DNA from: a virus
Lineage: Duplodnaviria; Heunggongvirae; Uroviricota; Caudoviricetes
Direction: 5' to 3' (one strand)
Length of the DNA stretch: 11,839 nucleotides
IMG/VR virus record: IMGVR_UViG_2744054854_000008
Location: 1 to 11,839 of that record
In this document: positions 1-11,839 of the stretch, piece by piece
Layout: each line of letters starts with the position of its first letter
Numbering within the stretch: the first letter of the stretch is position 1
Position numbers and translations under genes: made by a program
The notes under the pieces: model-generated
What the model was told of the DNA's origin: nothing
Databases searched by the model: none
Seen by the model: the letters and a program-made list of their open reading frames with translations, nothing else

Positions 1-585
1 CTATTCGATAATGGGTACTGTTGGCCATTCAATATCCGGTGCAGTTGTTGTATTAACACGGTTCAGCAACACCCGATATTTTTTCCAGGCTTCCAGCAAT
101 GAGGTTTCTTCCTCCGTTGCGATCTCCAGATCTACAGCATCCTGAAGTGGCGCTATATGCTCACTGGCTACCTGCATCAGGCTGTTTTTTGTTTCTTCCG
201 CCTCCCGGATCCGGAACAGTTTTTCTGCTTCCGTATCCTTCACCCAGGCTGTGCCGTTCCACTTCTGATATTCCCCTTCCGGCGATAACCAGGTGACATT
301 TTCCGGTAATGAGCCGAGTTCAGAAATAAATAACGCGTCGCCGGAAGCCACGTCATAAACCGTTTTACCCCGATGATCTTCAACGAGATGCCACGATGAC
401 TCATCACTGTTGAAAACAGCCACGAAGCCAGCTGGAATATCTGGCGGTGCAATGTCGGTACTGTTTGCTGGCAGACCTGTATGAGGCGGAATATATGCGT
501 CACCTTCACCAATAAATTCATTAGTTCCGGCCAGCAGATTATAAATTTTTATGGTCCGTGGTTGTTCACTCATTCTGAATGCCAT
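1..585 (-). CDS. tfa: Tail fiber assembly protein (lambda Tfa-like chaperone), 194 aa, complete
   Basis: Full ORF with ATG at 583-585 and stop at 1-3. Translation ([24 protein letters not shown]...EWPTVPIIE) is collinear with lambda Tfa as I recall it. Its start overlaps the stf stop (TAATG on the minus strand), the classic stf-tfa coupling. Confidence 0.9.
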
Positions 586-3500
586 TATGCAAGCCTCACA
601 ATATAGTTAAATGCGATGTTTTTGACGGTGTTTTCCGCGTTACCAGCAGCGTTAACGGTGATGGTGTGTCCATGTGAGCCAATCGCAACCGAGTGCGTAT
701 GAGCACCAATACCGACAGTATGTGCGTGTGCACCTGCGCTTGCAGCAGTACCCGATACAGAGTGCGTATGAGCGCCTGCAGAAGAAGTGTTAACACTGTA
801 TTTAGAATAATCAGGTGATCCACTTCCCGGAGCACCACTGGAACCACCTGAAACAAATGTCATCGAATGGGTATGTGCACCGGCTGAAGCAGCCGTACCG
901 CTAACACTATGGGTATGCGCACCAGTGTTATTCGTGGATTTAGTGCCGTAATCAAACGACGATGTGGTTTTCGTCCCCAAATCAGTACTGGATGCGCTGG
1001 CGCTGTGGGTATGCGATTTTATGCCGTCCTGTTCCTGAGACAATACGGCACGACCACTGGCGGGCTTGCCCTTAATCGTCCAGCCACGCATATCAGGGAT
1101 CACGCCTGACGGATAAGCGGCTGCAAGTTTCGGGTAGGCAGATTTGTCAAAAGTCTGCCCCTGCATCAGGGCATAACCAGACGGAACGGTATCTGATGGC
1201 CACGGGATTGGTGCGCCGACTGGGTAGCTTTCTGGTGGAAGATTTTTCGAGGTATAAACTTCTGCCCAGTCTTCCTCAAAACCATAACCGTCTCTTGAAG
1301 AACGGTAGAACAGACCACCATTTCTGTAATGCGCCTTCATCTGCAGGGTCCGGCAACTTCCGACTCCGGTATAGAAGTTAACCAGAATATAGCTGTCGCC
1401 AGAGCGGGTGACATTATAAGCGCCTGATTCGGCATTCCAGGGAACGCCACCATCCGCATCGGCATATGTATCCGTTGCCCTTCTGGCAAAAGCAGCCACA
1501 TGCGCGGCGGTTAAAGTGATATCAGTAGAACCATCAAATGGAACACCGGATATTTTTCTTGCAGTCTGGAGTTTTGTAGCAGTTGCAGCATTACCAGTAG
1601 TGTTCTGATTACCCGTAGTGTTTACACCTGGAAGGTTAATATTTGCAGAACCGTCGAAAACAACTCCACCGATAGATCTTGCCGTCTGCAATTTCGTGGC
1701 TGTACTTGCATTACCATTCAATGAACCAGTTAATCCACCTGTAACAGACAACGGACCTGAAACTGTTCCTCCGGTTGTTGGCAGTGCTCCAATATCTGAT
1801 GGTGTAGGTTTCTGATGTGAGCTATACATCGTATAAACAACACCATAGGTAACGCTGGAAGGCTTACTCGCTGAATATGTTGGCGAGGTATAAACAGAAA
1901 CTGACGCATTTGCAGTACAATCCCAATGGATATTTACACTCGTCGCATAATTGCCAATCTCAACGTAAATATCATATGTATCGCCGGATGTGTTGATCCA
2001 GGCGAAATTCGTTAATCCGACGGCTGTACGCTTCCACAAAGCCCCGGTAATTCCTTTGGGGTTTCCATTGCCTGCTCGTAGAACCAGTTCTGAAATGCCT
2101 GCCTGATGTGGGGAACCGACGTTGTAACCAGCGCCACCAATCAATGCGATGTAAACGATGGAACTCGTTTGTGGCATGGTAACCGTAGCCAGTTTGAACC
2201 ACCCAGCCCCGCCAGAGAAAGACATCGTTACTGAATTTAAAGTACCAATATCTTTCGGCGTTAATGTTATATCCGCAGTCAGTGCTTTTCCGTTAACTTT
2301 TCGGTTAGATGGCACCCTGCTATTCGCATTGTCATTGGCTGCTTTAACTGCTTTTGGCGTTGCGGCCAGCGATTCACTGGTGCTATCAACAGCACTGCTA
2401 AGTTTCACAACACCTTTAGTTGTAAGGCTTGCGTCTTCCATCGCAACTGCACCGGCAATCTCTTCAGCACGATCAGCAGCAGCTTCCGCACGGGTCGCAG
2501 CGGATTCAGCAGTAGTTTTGCTCTGAGATGCCGCCGTCGCACTGCCAGCAGCCTCTGTTGCCTTCGTGGATGCCGTCGTGGCGCTGCCCTTCGCTGCTGA
2601 CGCTTGTCTGGTCGCCTCATCTTTTGAAGCAGACGCCGATGAGGCCGATGACGCCGCCGAACTGGCGGACGATGCGGCAGCCGTTTTTGAGGATTCTGCG
2701 CTGGTTTCCGACGCTTTCGCGTTCGTTTCGGATGTCTTCGCTGCGGAAGCTGACCTCGCTGCTGCGCTGGCCTGTTCAGTGGCTTCGCCAGCCTTCGTTG
2801 TGGCTGTTGAAGCGGACGATGCGGCGCTTTCTGCCGATTTTCCGGCGGCGCTAGCACTGGCTGAGGCCTGCCCGGCACTTGTTGACGCTGCACTGGCAGA
2901 CGACGCAGCCGCTGTTTTTGAGCCTGCCGCAGCCGAGGCGCTCTGTCCCGCTGCCGTTTCAGAAGACCTGGCGTTTGTCTCGGACGTCTTTGCCGCCTTC
3001 GCGGAATTGCCTGCTGCCGTTGCCGAGGAAGCGGCACTACTGGCGCTTGATGATGCGTTCGTTTCTGATGATTTCGCTGCCTCTTTTGAGGCCGCCGCAT
3101 CCCGGGCTGAGGTGGCTGCTTCTGACGCCTTCGTGGTCGCGGCGGATGCAGAAGTGGCTGCTGATTGTTGTGACGCTGCCGCATTCGTTTCTGACGTTTT
3201 CGCCGTAGCGGCACTGGTAGCTGCCGCGCTTTTTGAGGACTCTGCAGCAGCAGCACTTTTCGATGCTTCACTGGCCTTTGTTGATGCCGTTCCTGCGCTG
3301 GAAGATGCTGACTGAGCCGACGACGCGGCCTGTCCGGCTGACGTGCTGGCTGCGCGTGCTGAGCCTGCAGCATCAGTCGCATGGGTTGCCGCCTCACGGG
3401 CTGATGTGCTGGCATCGCTGGCTGACTTCTTCGCGGCTGCCGTGTTCTGTGCCACCGCGGACGCGTTACGCGCCACCTCTTCCACCATCAGTTCAAAACG

Positions 3501-3812
3501 GCGCAGTGCCTCAGGACGGGCATCATCCTCCGTCATGGCACCGAGAAAATCATTCAGCGTACCGGGTCGGGAATCTTCATACACGGTGATGGTCCCGGCA
3601 TGTGACGGCGGGAATCCCTCCACCAACAGAATAACGCTGTACTGCCCGTACTCAACGTCCATGCTGTAACGCCCGGCTTCATCCGGATTTTCTGAGGCCA
3701 GCGTGTTCACCACCACCGTGGTGCTGTTACGTTTTGCTTTCAGCTGGATTGTGCAGTTCTGTACCGGTTTTCCTGTGCCGTCTTTCAGTACACCTGAAAT
3801 CTTTACTGCCAT
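585..3812 (-). CDS. stf: Side tail fiber protein (lambda Stf-like), about 1075 aa
   Basis: N-terminus [26 protein letters not shown] and C-terminus ...GAHTHSV...[15 protein letters not shown] match lambda-type Stf. Long Ala/Ser/Thr-rich central region and C-terminal GAHTH (HxH) repeats. Likely start is the ATG at 3810-3812 with GGGGTG upstream; the ORF track's start at 3818 is an upstream in-frame GTG. Stop TAA at 585-587. Confidence 0.9.
2400..3480 (-). repeat. GC-rich low-complexity repeat region inside stf, encoding reiterated Ala/Ser/Thr-rich motifs ([26 protein letters not shown])
   Basis: The translation shows many imperfect repeats of short A/S/T motifs. The DNA is dominated by GCN/TCN/ACN codons, which is why long spurious ORFs open in other frames and on the opposite strand here. 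Confidence 0.5.
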
Positions 3813-3823
3813 ATTCACCCCAC

Positions 3824-3850
3824 AAAAAAGCCCGCCTGAACCGGCGGGCT
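3824..3850 (-). terminator. Rho-independent terminator downstream of lom
   Basis: Plus-strand gcccgcc(3830-3836)/ggcgggc(3843-3849) inverted repeat with a 6-nt loop, preceded on plus by A6 (3824-3829). On the minus strand this is a GC stem followed by a T6 run, 27 nt after the lom stop. Confidence 0.6.
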
Positions 3851-3876
3851 GTCATAACACTGTGTTACCTGGCTAA

Positions 3877-4476
3877 TCAGAATTTATAACCGACACCCAC
3901 GATGAAACCGTCAGTGCGCCAGTCACCACTGCCGGAGCCTTCATAAGCAATATCAATGGCCACGGATTCGGTCGGGTTAAACTGCACGCCAGCCCCCCAC
4001 GCCAGAGACGTGTTGCTGTGGCGACCGTCATCACTTCCGGTCAGCACATCGTGCTTTTTCCCCTTGTTGTCAGTTACGCGAAGATAATCCCCGGAGAAAG
4101 TCGACACACGGCTGTAAGCCACACCCGCCATCGCATACGCGCTGAACCATTCATTCACGCGCACAGACGGCCCCGCCATTACGCTGAACCAGCGGTTACG
4201 CACGGAATCTTCATGCCAGCGGGTATCGCTGTAACGGGTAAGCTGGCGATTCTTGTCTCCTGCATAGCTGAATGACGTCACCATTCCCAGCGTGTCCGTA
4301 AACTCATAACGGTATTTCACGTTAATCCCGTTCAGATCATCGCTGCCGGAAACGTTCGTCGAGGCATGAAGATAGCCCGCGCTCAGCGTGGACTGATGTT
4401 CAGACGCCCATGCAGGCGCACCGGATACGGCCAGACAGATGGCTGCGGACAAAATGGCGGCATAAAGTTTACGCAT
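3877..4476 (-). CDS. lom: Outer membrane beta-barrel protein Lom (Ail/Lom/PagC family), 199 aa, intact
   Basis: ATG at 4474-4476 with GAGAGG Shine-Dalgarno upstream. Signal peptide [24 protein letters not shown], alternating amphipathic beta-strand pattern, C-terminal aromatic residue (…GVGYKF). Sits between J and stf as in lambda. Confidence 0.9.
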
Positions 4477-4542: not shown

Positions 4543-5910
<1,368 letters not shown>

Positions 5911-5954: not shown

Positions 5955-7340
5955 TTAACCAAGAATCAGACAACCATGTGCCGGCTTCACTGATGAAACA
6001 CCCCATGCCAGTCCAACTTCATAGCGCACCTGGCGATACTGACGATACAGTGCAATCTGGAACGTAATCCCTGAAATCGGGTCCGTAACATTCATTACAT
6101 CATCAGCATTATCGCCACCTTCCGGCATTGCCGGAGTACGGGATGCCAGCAGAAACGCGTTGCGATCAAACGCCATATTTGCCGTAAAGGCCCCAACAAC
6201 TGTGATGGCAGTATCATCGGCCAGATCCTGACGCAGTCCGGGCGCTGCAAGAGTAATCAGATTGCTGGTCGCTGCTGCCACAACATACTGATTCGGATCA
6301 CCAGCGAACGTAACAATCTGACCTGCAGAAATACTCCCCGAACCAGTATCAATGGAAATAAGAACATCGCCTTCTTTTTTCTCTCCATTCACGAGATAAC
6401 CAGTTGCAGCAACCTTTGGCGCTCGTTTCACACCTGCCGAACTGTGAATATTGAATCCCTCCAGACGCCCCAACACGCCCTCACGCAGTAGCTGTTCAGT
6501 GCCGGATTCATTCACTTTAAACAATACAGACTGTTTTCCGCGCAAATTAGCAATGGCAGTGGAGCCAAGCACCATCTGCAGATCGGTTGTCGGTGCGCCG
6601 TTATCCTCCAGAACCTGACGAGCCAGAGCAGCATCAGAAAGATCATCTTTAACACCAAACGGCGTTGTCCCTGCGGTTCCCACGGCGCGGGAAGCACCGA
6701 AATACAACGCACCAAGATCAGCCTCAACCTCGTTTGCAAGGGCGCGAAAAGCCTGCTTGAACTGATCAGCCAGAATGGTGTTGTAAGTCCCTGAAGGGCC
6801 AAGAGCCAGTTGTTCTTCACCATTCCATTTAACCGGTGCCATTTTGGATTTAGTAATTTTTACATCAACAGTGCCAATATTTTGATCACCGGTAAACATG
6901 CTGTTAATAGCAGTGCGGTTACCGGGCAAAACATCCGTCAACAGTTCATCAATTTCTGTCGGGATGAAGCCTGTCAGGGAGACATCAAAATCAGCATTGA
7001 TTAGGTCCGACAGCTCCATCCGCAACAGATCTTCATCCCAGCCAGCATTCATCGGCAGGCGATTATCTGCCAGGCGGTACGCCTTTTTCTGCTCATCCGT
7101 CAGGCCAGACAGAACAATGACCGGAACAGAATCCATTTTGAGCATTTCAGCCGCCATAACACGACCGTGACCCGCAATAATTTCGCCCTTTTCGTCAATC
7201 AGCACCGGATTAGTCCAGCCGAATTGCTTAATACTTTCTACCAGTTGTGCCACCTGCTCAGGGCTGTGCGTCCTGGCGTTGTGCGCATACGGTGACAATT
7301 CTTGTAATGGGCGATAGACTATCTTTAATTTCTCGCTCAT
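5955..7340 (-). CDS. ParB-like nuclease (ParB/Srx fold) N-terminal domain protein with an unassigned ~320-aa C-terminal region, 461 aa
   Basis: ATG at 7338-7340 with AAGG upstream. Residues ~8-95 (IVYRPLQELSPYAHNARTH...IIAGHGRVMAA...VPVIVLSGLTDEQKKAYRLADNRL) carry the ParB N-terminal domain pattern, with GHGR in place of the canonical GERR. The Gly/Ala/Thr/Val-rich C-terminal part has no motif I can assign. Followed by a terminator. Confidence 0.75.
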   Translation of the reverse strand: MSEKLKIVYRPLQELSPYAHNARTHSPEQVAQLVESIKQFGWTNPVLIDEKGEIIAGHGRVMAAEMLKMDSVPVIVLSGLTDEQKKAYRLADNRLPMNAGWDEDLLRMELSDLINADFDVSLTGFIPTEIDELLTDVLPGNRTAINSMFTGDQNIGTVDVKITKSKMAPVKWNGEEQLALGPSGTYNTILADQFKQAFRALANEVEADLGALYFGASRAVGTAGTTPFGVKDDLSDAALARQVLEDNGAPTTDLQMVLGSTAIANLRGKQSVLFKVNESGTEQLLREGVLGRLEGFNIHSSAGVKRAPKVAATGYLVNGEKKEGDVLISIDTGSGSISAGQIVTFAGDPNQYVVAAATSNLITLAAPGLRQDLADDTAITVVGAFTANMAFDRNAFLLASRTPAMPEGGDNADDVMNVTDPISGITFQIALYRQYRQVRYEVGLAWGVSSVKPAHGCLILG

Positions 7341-7477
7341 ACAGCCTTGCTTTATGAATAAAACGCCCCCCAGCAGCCAGTGCTACTGGGGACGGAGGGG
7401 TTGCTGGTAAAGTTAGGTATTGGATCAATGAGTGAGTCAACATAATATTAAACTCACAATTATAAATCAGCCATATA

Positions 7478-8935
7478 TTAGGAGCGCCAAAAAAAACCTG
7501 AAAACAATATAATAACAGGATAAATTTCAAGGCGACCAAGAATCATAGCTATGCACATTAAACATTTTGCAATGTCATTAAGCACTCCGAATGACGATGC
7601 AGTAGCCCCAAAACCTAATCCCATATTATTAATACATGCAGCCACTGTTGCAAATGATGTAAGAAAATCATATCCCATACCATTTAATACCAGTATAAAA
7701 AACACCGTGAAGAGAGTATAAAGAAAAAAGAAACTCCATACAGACCTCATTACACGATCTGTAACTATCTTCCCTCCTACATTTACACTCAACAACGCTC
7801 TGGGATGAGAAAGCTGATTTATCTCGTGTTTGCTTTGTTTGAAAAGTATAAGAAATCGAAGTGACTTAATTCCACCACAAGTTGAACCTATACATCCCCC
7901 AAAGAAACTTGACAACAGCAAAAACACTATCGTGTGCGTGGGCCAACTTGCATAATCCTGCGTAGCTAAACCATTATCAGTGAGCATGGAACTGGCAAGA
8001 AAAAACGAATGAATAAAACTTCCATGCAAGTCATACATACCTATATGCCAGACCTGGAAAGAGGTAACAATGATCACCCCTAAGGCTATTAACAGAAAGA
8101 AACGAAGTTCAATATCTCTGATTAAAGGTTTTATCGTTTTCCTGCTAATAACAATATACCAAAGAGTGAAGTTGAAAGCCGATAGCAGGGAAAAAGAACC
8201 AGCCACCAGCTCAACCAAATAGTTATTAAAATATCCGATACTCTCGCTATGAGTTGAGAAACCACCAAGCGAAACTGTGGAAATCCCGTGACAAATAGCA
8301 TCAAACAAAGGCATTCCTGCAAGTCTATAACAGACAATACAAGCAATACCTAATAAAGAATAAGTTATCCACAGTGTCCGTGACGTATCGGCCAGGCGGG
8401 GAGTGAGTTTGTCATCCTTAAATGGCCCCGGCATTTCTGACTGATAAAGCTTTGCACCACCAATACCCAATAATGGCAATACAGCAACCGCCAGAACAAT
8501 AACTCCTAAACCACCTATAAAATTTAACTGTGACCGATAGTACAAATATGCCCGAGGTAATGAACTAACATCATCAATTACAGTTGCTCCTGTTGTTGTT
8601 ATTCCAGAAACCCCTTCAAACAGAGCATCAATGAACGTTAAATTAAGTTCTGAGTCAATCCATAAAGGGAATGCACTAATAACAGAAAACAAAATCCAAA
8701 ACATTACAATTATAATAAACCCATCACGGGTACGTAATTGAATGCCAGATTTCTTAGTTGTATACCACGCTCCGCCACCAATGCAAAAAAATATAACGAA
8801 AGTTATAAAGAAAACGAACAGGCTTTTTTCTTTATAAAACAATGCTACAACCATTGGTGGCAACATTGAAAGACTATAGAGCCAAACCAGGAACCCACAC
8901 ATATGAGTAACAACTCTTACATGAGATGTATTCAT
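7478..8935 (-). CDS. trkG: TrkH/TrkG-family K+ uptake transporter (Rac-prophage TrkG-like), about 485 aa
   Basis: Multi-pass membrane protein. N-terminus MNTSHVRVVTHMCGFLVWLYSLSMLPP is as I recall TrkG, and the reiterated pore-loop GG(L/F)G-type motifs fit the TrkH family. Coding DNA is visibly AT-rich compared with its flanks. Start taken as the ATG at 8933-8935; an in-frame TTG at 8951-8953 with AGGTGG 6 nt upstream is an alternative (491 aa). Confidence 0.9.
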   Translation of the reverse strand: MNTSHVRVVTHMCGFLVWLYSLSMLPPMVVALFYKEKSLFVFFITFVIFFCIGGGAWYTTKKSGIQLRTRDGFIIIVMFWILFSVISAFPLWIDSELNLTFIDALFEGVSGITTTGATVIDDVSSLPRAYLYYRSQLNFIGGLGVIVLAVAVLPLLGIGGAKLYQSEMPGPFKDDKLTPRLADTSRTLWITYSLLGIACIVCYRLAGMPLFDAICHGISTVSLGGFSTHSESIGYFNNYLVELVAGSFSLLSAFNFTLWYIVISRKTIKPLIRDIELRFFLLIALGVIIVTSFQVWHIGMYDLHGSFIHSFFLASSMLTDNGLATQDYASWPTHTIVFLLLSSFFGGCIGSTCGGIKSLRFLILFKQSKHEINQLSHPRALLSVNVGGKIVTDRVMRSVWSFFFLYTLFTVFFILVLNGMGYDFLTSFATVAACINNMGLGFGATASSFGVLNDIAKCLMCIAMILGRLEIYPVIILFSGFFWRS

Positions 8936-8939
8936 ATCT

Positions 8940-9010
8940 AAATATTCTTTCAATTATAACCACCTTGCTGCAATATTATGATTATACTGTATAAAATTTA
9001 ACTCCTCTTA
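8940..9010 (-). promoter_or_regulatory. Candidate trkG promoter in an AT-rich intergenic region
   Basis: Two minus-strand TATAAT hexamers (plus attata at 8953-8958 and 8981-8986) in a 137-bp AT-rich spacer between the Rz stop and trkG. Neither has a good -35 element, so this is weakly supported. Confidence 0.2.
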
Positions 9011-9072
9011 GATCTTACTTCACTGTTCCTTATGAAACAATCATCAAAATGAATCATATTGTAGTTAAGATT

Positions 9073-9363
9073 TTACTTTAAACACTGCTCGGTTATGTAT
9101 TGCTGAGCACCTTCAAGTTGGGCCTGCATCATTACCAGTCGTTCCCGGAGGGTGAAATAATCCCGTTCAGCGGTGTCTGCCAGTCGGGGGGAGGCTGCAT
9201 TATCCACGCCGGAGGCGGTGGTGGCTTCACGCACTGACTGACAGACTGCTTTGATGTGCAACCGACGACGACCAGCGGCAACATCATCACGCAGAACATC
9301 ATTTTCAGCTTTCGCATCAGCTAACTCCTTCGTGTATTTTGCATCGAGCGCAGCAACATCACG
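9073..9363 (-). pseudogene. rzpR: N-terminally truncated Rz (i-spanin) remnant, C-terminal ~97 codons
   Basis: Hand translation gives RDVAALDAKYTKELADAKAENDVLRDDVAAGRRRLHIKAVCQSVREATTASGVDNAASPRLADTAERDYFTLRERL..., collinear with the lambda Rz C-terminal two thirds. Similarity stops abruptly upstream of codon R at 9361-9363; the signal-anchor N-terminus and a start codon are missing. Confidence 0.7.
9132..9317 (-). CDS. rzoR: Rz1-type o-spanin outer membrane lipoprotein, 61 aa, embedded in the +1 frame of the Rz remnant
   Basis: ATG at 9315-9317. MRKLKMMFCVMMLPLVVVGCTSKQ... has a lipobox (VVGC), and the Pro-rich mature part (KPPPPPAWIMQPPPDWQ) matches lambda Rz1 nearly residue for residue. 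Confidence 0.8.
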   Translation of the reverse strand: MRKLKMMFCVMMLPLVVVGCTSKQSVSQCVKPPPPPAWIMQPPPDWQTPLNGIISPSGNDW

Positions 9364-9422
9364 CGGACTTGTGCAAGTTGCCAGGAGGATCTGGAGCTTA
9401 TCAGTAAACAGAGAGGTTCGAA

Positions 9423-9830
9423 GTGAGCGAAATTAACTCTCAGGCACTGCGTGAAGCGGCAGAGAAAGCCGGTGAAGATAAGTGGCAGGCTAAAAAAATA
9501 AATGGTGATTTTTTCGTTATTCGTCACGGTAGTTATACAAGACAGCATGGCTACACATCGTATCAACCCATTGCGGAGATTGATTGTAAGCCAGTCCGGG
9601 ATTTTGTTGCCAAGGCTAATCCGGCTACCGTGCTGGAATTACTGGATGAACTGGAAGCAGCAAAAAAGCGCATTGCAGAACTGGAAGCGCGGGAAATACT
9701 GCTCCCGGAACGTAGCAGCATGCTTCATCGAACAGATTTTCACGATGATTACCAAACGGTAATGGCATACAAAGTTTCTGAAGTCATCGATGCAATCCGC
9801 GCTACTGGCATTCGCATCAAAGGAGAGTGA
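9423..9830 (+). CDS. Phage Ead/Ea22-like family protein (function unknown), 135 aa
   Basis: GTG start at 9423 with GAGAGG upstream; stop TGA at 9828-9830. Motifs QALREAAEKA and ANPATVLELLDELEAAKKRIAELE are what I associate with Ead/Ea22-like proteins of lambdoid prophages. The family assignment is from memory. Confidence 0.55.
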   Translation: MSEINSQALREAAEKAGEDKWQAKKINGDFFVIRHGSYTRQHGYTSYQPIAEIDCKPVRDFVAKANPATVLELLDELEAAKKRIAELEAREILLPERSSMLHRTDFHDDYQTVMAYKVSEVIDAIRATGIRIKGE

Positions 9831-9831
9831 G

Positions 9832-10587
9832 ATGATTCACTACCACGGTGGGCCTATTACTCCTGATACGTGCGCAATGAGAGCATGGAAAGGGCGACAT
9901 GCGTTTATCAGTTTTGCGCATTCAGGCCAGATCAATCTCGCGGCTGAATACTGTCAGTCGTTCGCGCTGGACAACGGTGCATTCACCGCCTGGAAAGCAG
10001 CTGGCAAAAACAAAATCGACTGGAGCGATTACTACGAGTTTGTTGCTCGCTGGAAGAATCACCCAGGATTCGATTTTGCCATTATCCCGGATATTATTGA
10101 TGGCGGAGAGGAGGAAAATGATGCGCTTCTGAATGAGTGGCCTCACGGAAAACTAGCTGGCGTTCCAGTGTGGCACATGAATGAAAGTGACGCGCGATTT
10201 ATTCATTTGTGCAATGAGTTTCCGCGAGTGGCTATCGGTAGTTGTGGCGACTATGACGTAAAGCGCCCAACTCTTGCGGTAGCCAGAATGAAAGACCTGA
10301 TTCGTCACATTGTTGATGGGCATGGTCAGCCGGTTACGAAACTACATGGATTGCGCATGTTAAATCCGCTGATATTCACAAAATTACCCTTAGCCAGCGC
10401 AGATAGTACGAACGTCGCTCGAAACATCGGTATTGATAAAGCCTGGTCTGGGGCTTATGCACCTGCAAGTAAAGAGACACGCGCAGCATTAATGGTAGAA
10501 CGGATTGAGGCACACAATAGCCCTGGTTCTCTTGCGTATTGTGAACAACGCGACCGCTTTGAAATGCAATTGCAACTAGCAGTTTAA
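9832..10587 (+). CDS. Hypothetical protein with TGT-like (tRNA-guanine transglycosylase fold) motifs; candidate DpdA-type 7-deazaguanine transglycosylase, 251 aa
   Basis: ATG at 9832 with AGGAG 6 nt upstream, 1 nt after the upstream stop; the track's start at 9790 is an upstream in-frame ATG. Motifs in TGT order: FALDNGAF (cf. TGT LTDSGGFQ), GFDFAIIPDI (cf. GSDIVMIFDE), HLCNEFPRVAIGSCG (cf. HVCPQIPADKPRYLMGVG), ADSTNVARN (cf. FDCVMPTRNARN, nucleophile Asp). No CxCxxC...H zinc motif. The gene call is solid; the functional call is a hypothesis. Confidence 0.6.
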   Translation: MIHYHGGPITPDTCAMRAWKGRHAFISFAHSGQINLAAEYCQSFALDNGAFTAWKAAGKNKIDWSDYYEFVARWKNHPGFDFAIIPDIIDGGEEENDALLNEWPHGKLAGVPVWHMNESDARFIHLCNEFPRVAIGSCGDYDVKRPTLAVARMKDLIRHIVDGHGQPVTKLHGLRMLNPLIFTKLPLASADSTNVARNIGIDKAWSGAYAPASKETRAALMVERIEAHNSPGSLAYCEQRDRFEMQLQLAV

Positions 10588-10597
10588 GGACTAACAA

Positions 10598-11839
10598 ATG
10601 ACCACTATTACCAAAGAACGTATTGAATTGTTCATTAAAAATCCGCTTGAAAACGGGCTTACTCGTGGCGAACAAATGGAACTGGCACGAATTGCACTGG
10701 CATCACTGGAACGCGAACTGATTCGCCACGAGCATGCCAAATGGTCTGACTCCACATTTGGCTGCGTTGGCCCCATTGGTCCACTGAAACACCTCTCAAA
10801 AGAGGCTCTGGAAGCCGCAGCCGAACCAGACGATCTCAGCGAGTGGGCTGATATGCATTTCCTGTTGTGGGATGCACAGCGCCGTGCTGGCATCAGCGAT
10901 GCTGAAATTACCGCTGCTATGGAAGATAAATTGAAGATCAACATGGAGCGCCAGTGGCCTGAACCAAAAGATGGTGAGCCTCGCTTGCACATTAAAGAAC
11001 CCGGCAACTCTCCGGTAATTCCGGATGGTTTATCCACGGTATGCGCTGAGGCTTATCAGGTTGTAGGAGTTATGGCAGATGCGCTTGGTGTATTCGGTGA
11101 TGCAGCAGTACAGAAAGTTCTGGATAACCTGTCACAGCAAAAACTTGTTCACAGAGATGTGCTGCCGTTCTCGCTTCCGGTGACTCCGGATGGTTGGATA
11201 AGCTGTAGTGAGCGAATGCCGAAAGAGGCAATAGCTGAAGGCCATATAACAACAAACCCTGTCGCTGCCACTCGCGCAGCAAAATCAGAGGTAAGGAGAT
11301 CAAGACTTACGGCTGACGAATACCTGAAAATTTATCAAGCAGCAGAATCATCACCATGTTGGCTCAGACTTGCAATGGAACTGGCTGTTGTTACCGGGCA
11401 GCGAGTTGGTGATTTATGCGAAATGAAGTGGTCTGATATCGTAGATGGATATCTTTATGTCGAGCAAAGCAAAACAGGCGTAAAAATTGCCATCCCAACA
11501 ACATTGCATGTTGATGCTCTCGGGATATCAATGAAGGAAACACTTGATAAATGCAAAAAGATTCTTGGCGGAGAAACCATAATTGCATCTACTCGTCGTG
11601 AACCGCTTTCATCCGGCACAGTATCAAGGTATTTTATGCGCGCACGAAAAGCATCAGGTCTCTCCTTCGAAGGGGATCCGCCAACCTTTCACGAGTTGCG
11701 CAGTTTGTCTGCAAGACTCTATGAGAAGCAGATAAGCGATAAATTTGCTCAACATCTTCTCGGGCATAAGTCGGACACCATGGCATCACAGTATCGTGAT
11801 GACAGAGGCAGGGAGTGGGACAAAATTGAAATCAAATAA
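10598..11839 (+). CDS. Chimeric tyrosine recombinase: non-integrase N-terminal ~209 aa fused in frame to a lambda-type Int catalytic domain (~203 aa), 413 aa
   Basis: ATG at 10598 with TAAGGA 7 nt upstream; stop TAA at 11837-11839. From residue ~210 (EAIAEGHITTN...TGQRVGDL...FHELRSLSARLY...HLLGHKSDTMASQYRDDRGREWDKIEIK) it is near-identical to the lambda Int C-terminal catalytic domain, including the R...HxxR...H...Y residues. Residues 1-209 do not resemble the Int arm-binding or core-binding domains. Confidence 0.8.
   Translation: MTTITKERIELFIKNPLENGLTRGEQMELARIALASLERELIRHEHAKWSDSTFGCVGPIGPLKHLSKEALEAAAEPDDLSEWADMHFLLWDAQRRAGISDAEITAAMEDKLKINMERQWPEPKDGEPRLHIKEPGNSPVIPDGLSTVCAEAYQVVGVMADALGVFGDAAVQKVLDNLSQQKLVHRDVLPFSLPVTPDGWISCSERMPKEAIAEGHITTNPVAATRAAKSEVRRSRLTADEYLKIYQAAESSPCWLRLAMELAVVTGQRVGDLCEMKWSDIVDGYLYVEQSKTGVKIAIPTTLHVDALGISMKETLDKCKKILGGETIIASTRREPLSSGTVSRYFMRARKASGLSFEGDPPTFHELRSLSARLYEKQISDKFAQHLLGHKSDTMASQYRDDRGREWDKIEIK

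Follow-up and report, generated by a model that had tools for sequence, protein, structure and literature searches.

An open reading frame that joins a DUF550 gene to a lambda-type integrase gene

The right-hand part of the window, by which we mean the whole 11,839-nt stretch of phage DNA analysed here, carries two genes typical of the ead region of lambdoid phages, followed by an open reading frame (ORF) of 413 codons whose last base is also the last base of the window. The original prediction had read this ORF as an in-frame chimera of an unrelated N-terminal module and a lambda-type integrase catalytic domain. That reading stands: the ORF is intact from its ATG to its stop codon, it gives matches to three Pfam families, and BLAST assigns its two parts to two different parent genes. 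The features of this region are as follows.

9423 to 10587, + strand: two co-oriented ead-region genes (one Ead/Ea22-like, the other TGT/DpdA-like and of 251–265 aa), directly upstream of the fusion and in the order found in intact prophages of this type
10586 to 10590, + strand: Shine-Dalgarno-like AAGGA, 7 nt 5' of the ATG, read from the sequence
10598 to 11839, + strand: chimeric ORF DUF550/DUF551'::'int (with lambda Int residues 153–356), 413 codons plus stop, ATG start, uninterrupted
10721 to 11008, + strand: complete PF04447 domain (DUF550, dATP-dGTP_PPHyd), aa 42–137
11192 to 11226, + strand: DUF551 stub, aa 199–210, with about 14 of 68 profile positions left
11227 to 11293, + strand: segment between the joint and the Int catalytic domain, placed by alignment with lambda Int and by published domain limits (PMC2831311)
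11294 to 11836, + strand: complete Int catalytic domain (lambda Int 176–356) with R269, K292, H365, R368, H390 and Y399

The N-terminal half had been guessed to be a DUF550 protein followed by the start of DUF551, and the profile searches agree with this guess. PF04447 is complete in the fusion (E 2.5e-41, profile positions 1–96 of 97; 140.3 bits against the Pfam cut-off of 23), and a control scan matched the same family in the unfused 265-aa parent. PF04448 (DUF551) leaves a sub-threshold trace at aa 199–212 (profile positions 1–14 of 68; 20.1 bits against a cut-off of 22), whereas in the intact 265-aa parent it scores 52.8 bits over positions 1–67 of 68. A PDB sequence search with residues 1–209 returned no match at E <= 0.01. 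The good ribosome-binding site noted in front of the intact frame is the AAGGA motif, which overlaps the TAA of the preceding ORF; it is the DUF550 gene's own ribosome-binding site and is identical in the unfused parent gene. In the RefSeq/PGAP annotation, the DNA of the fusion ORF appears as three pseudogene fragments. The preceding ORF (9790–10587, + strand; 265 aa, or 251 aa from the start chosen by PGAP) has no Pfam match and matches PHROG 887, ‘queuine tRNA-ribosyltransferase’, at E 5.8e-102. The position of this TGT/DpdA-like gene directly before a dATP/dGTP pyrophosphohydrolase module may point to a nucleotide- or DNA-modification pair among the ead genes.

Residues 210–413 of the chimera align without gaps to lambda Int 153–356, 200 of the 204 positions being identical, and both proteins end in EWDKIEIK. 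The catalytic set is kept in full, with R269, K292, H365, R368, H390 and Y399 corresponding to lambda R212, K235, H308, R311, H333 and Y342; the likeness to lambda Int had been said to run to the shared C-terminus with all catalytic residues present, and it does. PF00589 (Phage_integrase) was matched at aa 236–402 (E 4.4e-40, profile positions 2–168 of 172), with a score of 137.7 bits relative to a cut-off of 27.1. The lambda Int structures 5j0n, 1z1g and 1p7d match exactly the Int span of the chimera, and this span takes in the whole of the crystallised catalytic fragment 1ae9, which maps to aa 234–412. An AlphaFold2 model of the chimera, computed from a 15-row alignment of near-identical matches, had a mean pLDDT of 40.6 and a pTM of 0.28 and was unusable.

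Loss of the DNA-binding domains of Int and of xis

Lambda Int is divided into an N-domain (residues 1–63), a coupler (64–74), a core-binding domain (75–175) and a catalytic domain (176–356) (PMC2831311), and arm binding is required to activate efficient core binding and cleavage by the protein (PMC2831311; PMC1807965). When intact Int was scanned as a control, Pfam returned the arm-binding family PF09003 at aa 1–69 (E 7e-33), the core-binding families PF22022/PF02899 at aa 81–171, and PF00589. In the chimera, PF09003 and PF22022/PF02899 gave no Pfam match, in agreement with the earlier claim that its N-terminus holds none of the arm- or core-binding sequence of Int. What remains is the last 23 core-binding residues (Int 153–175) plus the whole catalytic domain. 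Xis, Int 1–152 and the remainder of DUF551 were not found anywhere else in the window, and the closed genome that carries the element contains a single copy of a lambda-type int. Because the two defining domains were looked for and are absent, the Int half is, as judged by its domain content, a fragment and not a functional member of the lambda/434/HK97 integrase family. A fusion without arm binding, with almost no core binding and without Xis would not be expected to assemble an intasome or to recombine attL with attR. On this domain content, the prophage very probably cannot excise by itself.

In the near-identical closed genome NZ_AP021894 (L001; 99.93% identity over the whole window), the element lies between ybhB and ybhC, i.e., at attB-lambda. 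The 15-bp lambda att core, GCTTTTTTATACTAA, is present at both ends, one copy beside ybhB and the other 74 nt past the int stop, in the DNA just beyond the end of the window where the original prediction had proposed that a core be sought. Identity to lambda is 99.5% in the P' arm and 88.6% in the P arm. The suggestion that the element is locked in is supported indirectly, by the lack of xis and of Int 1–152 in the window, by the intact att cores at both ends and by the in situ decay seen within one clone (described below). In the same genome, positions 999–2330 of the locus, between the attR core (344–358) and tfa, in the place that the b region occupies in lambda, hold a gene for a sensor-domain diguanylate cyclase, which is probably prophage cargo.

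A three-nucleotide joint between two co-oriented parent genes

The switch from one parent to the other had been placed at about nt 11225, residue 210, and comparison with a parent-like locus puts it there:

11224 to 11226, + strand: deletion joint, AGA microhomology (3 nt) common to both parents, located by BLAST against a parent-like locus

Across the joint the chimera has the sequence CCGAAAGAGGCAAT, where the parental DUF550/551 gene has CCGAAAGA/AACG and the parental int has TTCCGAG/AGAGGCAAT. The slash marks the breakpoint; codon 210 (GAG, E210) is Glu in both parents. Nucleotides 1–629 of the ORF are 100% identical to a free-standing DUF550/551 gene of E. coli APEC O78, and nucleotides 627–1242 match the 3' part of the int gene of the same strain at 98% identity. 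The APEC O78 prophage occupies the same att site, with the order TraR/DksA, Ead/Ea22, a 251-aa hypothetical protein, the 265-aa DUF550/DUF551 protein, IS2, a small ORF, xis, full-length int and ybhC. The two breakpoints are 2847 nt apart in APEC O78, an interval that comprises IS2, the small ORF, xis and the 5' part of int. The deleted length is thereby bracketed between about 1.5 kb (no IS2) and about 2.8 kb (with IS2). For the int half, a perfect match is also available: 12 complete genomes, among them HS30-1, where xis and a DUF550 gene lie upstream, have an intact int with 100% identity to the 613 nt kept in the fusion. In the APEC O78, E89 and HS30-1 loci both halves are separate, co-oriented genes in the same synteny. 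Given parental alleles that are 100% identical to each half, no substitution separates either half of the fusion from living alleles. The joint falls inside DUF551 and inside the core-binding domain, and not at domain borders. A sharp 3-nt joint between co-oriented, syntenic parents is the signature of one illegitimate deletion.

Several other possibilities concerning the joint and the int sequence were considered and rejected. K321 (lambda E264) is not a mutation acquired after the deletion, given that intact ints with the very same 613-nt sequence exist. Deletion mediated by an IS element was ruled out, the joint being free of any IS remnant, although APEC O78 has IS2 in the deleted interval. 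As for a deletion driven by homology, the parents resemble each other modestly around the joint (TGAGCGA...CCGA.AG; score 9; P ~0.04 relative to random 40-nt pairs), and no such similarity is seen at the joint of a second, independent deletion in the strain Tig228.

Distribution of the fusion and an independent deletion in Tig228

The joint is present in 2 of 5426 complete E. coli genomes, both of them essentially one strain; an intact xis-int pair is present in 1988. When contigs were looked up by exact protein sequence, the 413-aa protein turned up on at least 24 of them (55 index blocks) in NCBI and Logan assemblies. Over 10 kb of chromosomal flank the carriers differ by 0–0.3 SNP/kb, compared to 6.5 and 10.8 SNP/kb for strains with other alleles. 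Within the 1242-nt ORF there are 0–1 differences among carriers, and one missense change (G787A) is found in both complete genomes. Near-identical flanks in all carriers indicate one clone and one event, and this comparison of sequences points to the fusion having arisen once, in one E. coli clone. A large protein search (5.8 billion proteins) returned no full-length match among the best 120, which covered at most 61% of the query; full-length natural homologues were thus not seen there, and the N-terminus belongs to a pyrophosphohydrolase family rather than having an arm-binding fold.

Tig228 (NZ_CM196107; L003, 6440–6480) carries an independent DUF550::int deletion in a different prophage allele and on a different chromosome background from the fusion clone. 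There, nt 459 of the DUF550 gene is joined to about nt 452 of int, out of frame, and a stop follows after 15 nt. The int-side endpoint of this deletion is 5–8 nt upstream of that in the window; under a purely random model, the chance of int-side endpoints so close together is about 2%. With two deletions to compare, the 5–8 nt spacing may be a coincidence or the mark of a hot spot for deletion around int nt 450; the local resemblance of the parents accounts for it poorly.

The open frame of the fusion calls for no special explanation, since one random deletion in three between co-oriented genes will leave the frame intact and the good ribosome-binding site was already in place. The ORF is unbroken in every copy seen in the exact-protein look-up; with 0–1 differences in 1242 nt, however, the clone is too young for intactness of the ORF to say anything about selection. 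Promoter-like sites in 8900–11839 number 3, compared to 4.5 expected from shuffled sequence. Expression of the fusion in the version of the prophage found in the window is doubtful, because pL has been deleted and no convincing promoter was seen. Taken together, the sequences give no evidence that the fusion is kept for a function.

Stepwise decay of the prophage within the clone

The same int lesion occurs in four contexts among members of the clone. In loci L016, L018, L020 and L021 the chimera lies beside a complete early region (O/P-like, cII, cro, cI, N, cIII, kil, gam, bet, exo). In the window, a truncated Rz abuts a truncated TraR gene and everything between them has been deleted, with the following joint:

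9364 to 9368, no strand assigned: later deletion joint with 1-nt microhomology, between the truncated Rz (– strand) and the last 63 nt of the TraR/DksA gene (+ strand)

This second joint removes pL together with the entire early, immunity, replication and lysis region. In the third context (L019) a full-length Rz abuts the middle of the Ead gene, and neither this form nor that of the window can be derived from the other. In the fourth (L011) the chimera is accompanied by an insertion of the IS3 family. Since the same int lesion is shared by forms that followed at least three different later routes of decay, the int/xis deletion is the oldest lesion that they have in common. The term ‘grounded prophage’ has been used for a prophage that has lost excision and then decays stepwise by deletion and IS insertion (PMC6379469). 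We infer from the order of lesions that the prophage of this clone was grounded first and eroded in situ afterwards.

Origin of the fusion and alternative readings

We interpret the ORF as the scar of one microhomology-mediated deletion in a lambda-family prophage at attB-lambda, and give this reading a probability of roughly 0.93. Its basis comes directly from the analysis: both parent genes, the joint between them, the domains present, att cores that are intact, and a distribution confined to one clone. No result speaks against an origin by deletion. On this reading, an illegitimate deletion in the leftward operon ran from about codon 210 of the DUF550/DUF551 ead gene to about codon 152 of int. 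Lost with it were the remainder of DUF551, whatever small genes lay in the interval, xis together with the pI promoter, and the arm-binding domain, the coupler and about three-quarters of the core-binding domain of Int. With the two genes co-oriented and the joint in frame by chance, the DUF550 start codon and ribosome-binding site would now drive a 413-aa fusion. Such a protein, lacking arm binding, Xis and most of core binding, would leave attL and attR unrecombined and the prophage grounded, after which it would have lost further blocks, through independent deletions and an IS insertion that differ from one member of the clone to another. The Int and Xis of a lambda-type phage, supplied in trans, are predicted to be still able to excise the remnant. 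By analogy with related proteins, the DUF550 half may still hydrolyse dGTP and dATP, and the Int half may retain at most weak, poorly targeted cleavage and topoisomerase activity.

An alternative is that the fusion is a selected, functional neo-protein. It could be a dominant-negative Int catalytic domain, acting by poisoning the intasomes of lambda-family phages that superinfect the cell or by blocking rescue of the remnant, or else a dNTP pyrophosphohydrolase that the Int domain tethers to DNA. In favour of this, the two enzymatic domains are complete with intact active-site residues, the native ribosome-binding site is retained, no copy seen has a broken ORF although the prophage DNA around it suffered several deletions, and members of the clone that have decayed less retain it within an operon that begins with N and pL. 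Against this, the fusion is confined to one very young clone, with no divergence on which selection could be read, and the joint cuts through DUF551 and the core-binding domain instead of respecting their borders. The independent, equivalent deletion in Tig228 is out of frame; in the window the operon promoter is gone and promoter-like sites are not in excess; and the architecture is absent among the best 120 matches of the large protein search. We regard the neo-protein as very improbable. We would give similarly long odds to a consequential role for the lesion, whether the fusion is expressed and acts in trans, poisoning lambda/434/HK97-type intasomes or preventing their Int and Xis from rescuing the remnant, or whether, in clone members that keep immunity, replication and N/pL, the loss of int/xis leads to in situ replication that amplifies or transduces gal-bio.

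Two further readings are less probable still. The fusion could represent a natural architecture, i.e., an integrase family in which a DUF550-type N-terminal module replaces the arm- and core-binding domains; the intact frame and the presence of both att cores are all that speaks for this. The halves, however, are 100% (nt 1–629) and 98–100% (int) identical to separate genes that other E. coli carry in the same order, 1.5–2.8 kb from each other, the best 120 proteins found cover 61% of the query or less, a DUF551 stub of 14 out of 68 positions is what a truncated gene would leave, and all carriers belong to one clone, so that this reading is effectively refuted already. It could also be supposed that two prophage genes were joined by an error of assembly or sequencing, as prophage repeats often break short-read assemblies; here two closed chromosomes share the identical joint, as do at least 24 contigs drawn from independent assemblies (NCBI and Logan), and carrier contigs of 0.3–4.7 Mb run through the joint into ybhC, which leaves an artefact with next to no likelihood.

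Relation to known systems

The closest relatives of the Int half are the lambda/434/HK97 integrases (356 aa, heterobivalent tyrosine recombinases), with which it shares Int 153–356, the C-terminus, the six catalytic residues and the lambda attB locus; the attL next to the fusion is 99.5% identical to lambda in its core and P' arm. Unlike these integrases, the fusion is without Int 1–63, the coupler 64–74, residues 75–152 and xis, and has a foreign N-terminus of 209 residues instead. The isolated catalytic fragment of lambda Int (1ae9; ‘C170’) is contained whole in the chimera, which differs from it in adding 23 core-binding residues and an unrelated enzyme domain. This isolated fragment reportedly keeps topoisomerase activity and weak cleavage, binds core sites poorly and does not recombine. 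For the N-terminal half, the counterparts are the DUF550/DUF551 (EaA-type) proteins of about 265 aa encoded in the ead regions of lambdoid and P22-like phages: residues 1–209 of the chimera are identical to them, whereas the Int fragment takes the place of their last 56 residues, nearly the whole of DUF551. In Acinetobacter phage SH-Ab 15497, a protein that has DUF550 in tandem with DUF5664 converts dGTP and dATP to dGMP and dAMP plus pyrophosphate (PMC12884076).

As a whole, the element resembles grounded or cryptic prophages with damaged int/xis, such as the defective lambdoid prophages of E. coli K-12, in its loss of excision and its stepwise decay. It is unlike the usual grounded prophage in having an open, in-frame fusion gene in place of a frameshifted or missing int, and in that intermediate decay states of the clone are available. 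This is ordinary prophage decay, nothing new in kind and no new recombinase, and RefSeq already flags the gene as a pseudogene. For annotation, the ORF should be labelled a DUF550::'int fusion remnant and not an integrase, and the element a non-excisable prophage remnant. Its value is modest and lies in a natural series within one clone, in which the same int/xis lesion is combined with a complete early region, with two large deletions, or with an IS insertion. Such a series is a clean case of grounding before decay; it could be used to time prophage decay and to see whether a helper lambda-type phage excises a remnant that has intact att sites.

Other composite and truncated genes of the window

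Two stretches of the window resemble the Rac prophage of K-12. Positions 7087–9368 are 99.6% identical to K-12 Rac rzpR'-rzoR-trkG-ynaK, although the element is at att-lambda and not at ttcA, and the tail-fibre region (19–4274) is 91–98% identical to Rac stfR, tfaR and lomR. On these identities, prophages at different sites share the Rac-like module. We considered whether the truncation of Rz in the window is that of rzpR in K-12 Rac, and this was ruled out, the K-12 and L019 sequences continuing past the joint of the window. Two further ORFs on the – strand are composite or truncated. A second in-frame chimera of 461 aa at 5955–7340 combines a ParB_N domain (YnaK-like, aa 23–90) with the middle of a P22-type coat protein (aa 190–323, profile positions 101–235 of 423), and PGAP splits this ORF into a ynaK pseudogene and a coat-family CDS. 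The 341-aa ORF at 4543–5568 is the C-terminal part of the tail-tip protein J (Phage_Tail_Tip plus Ig_GpJ_C), a truncation scar that PGAP annotates as a pseudogene.
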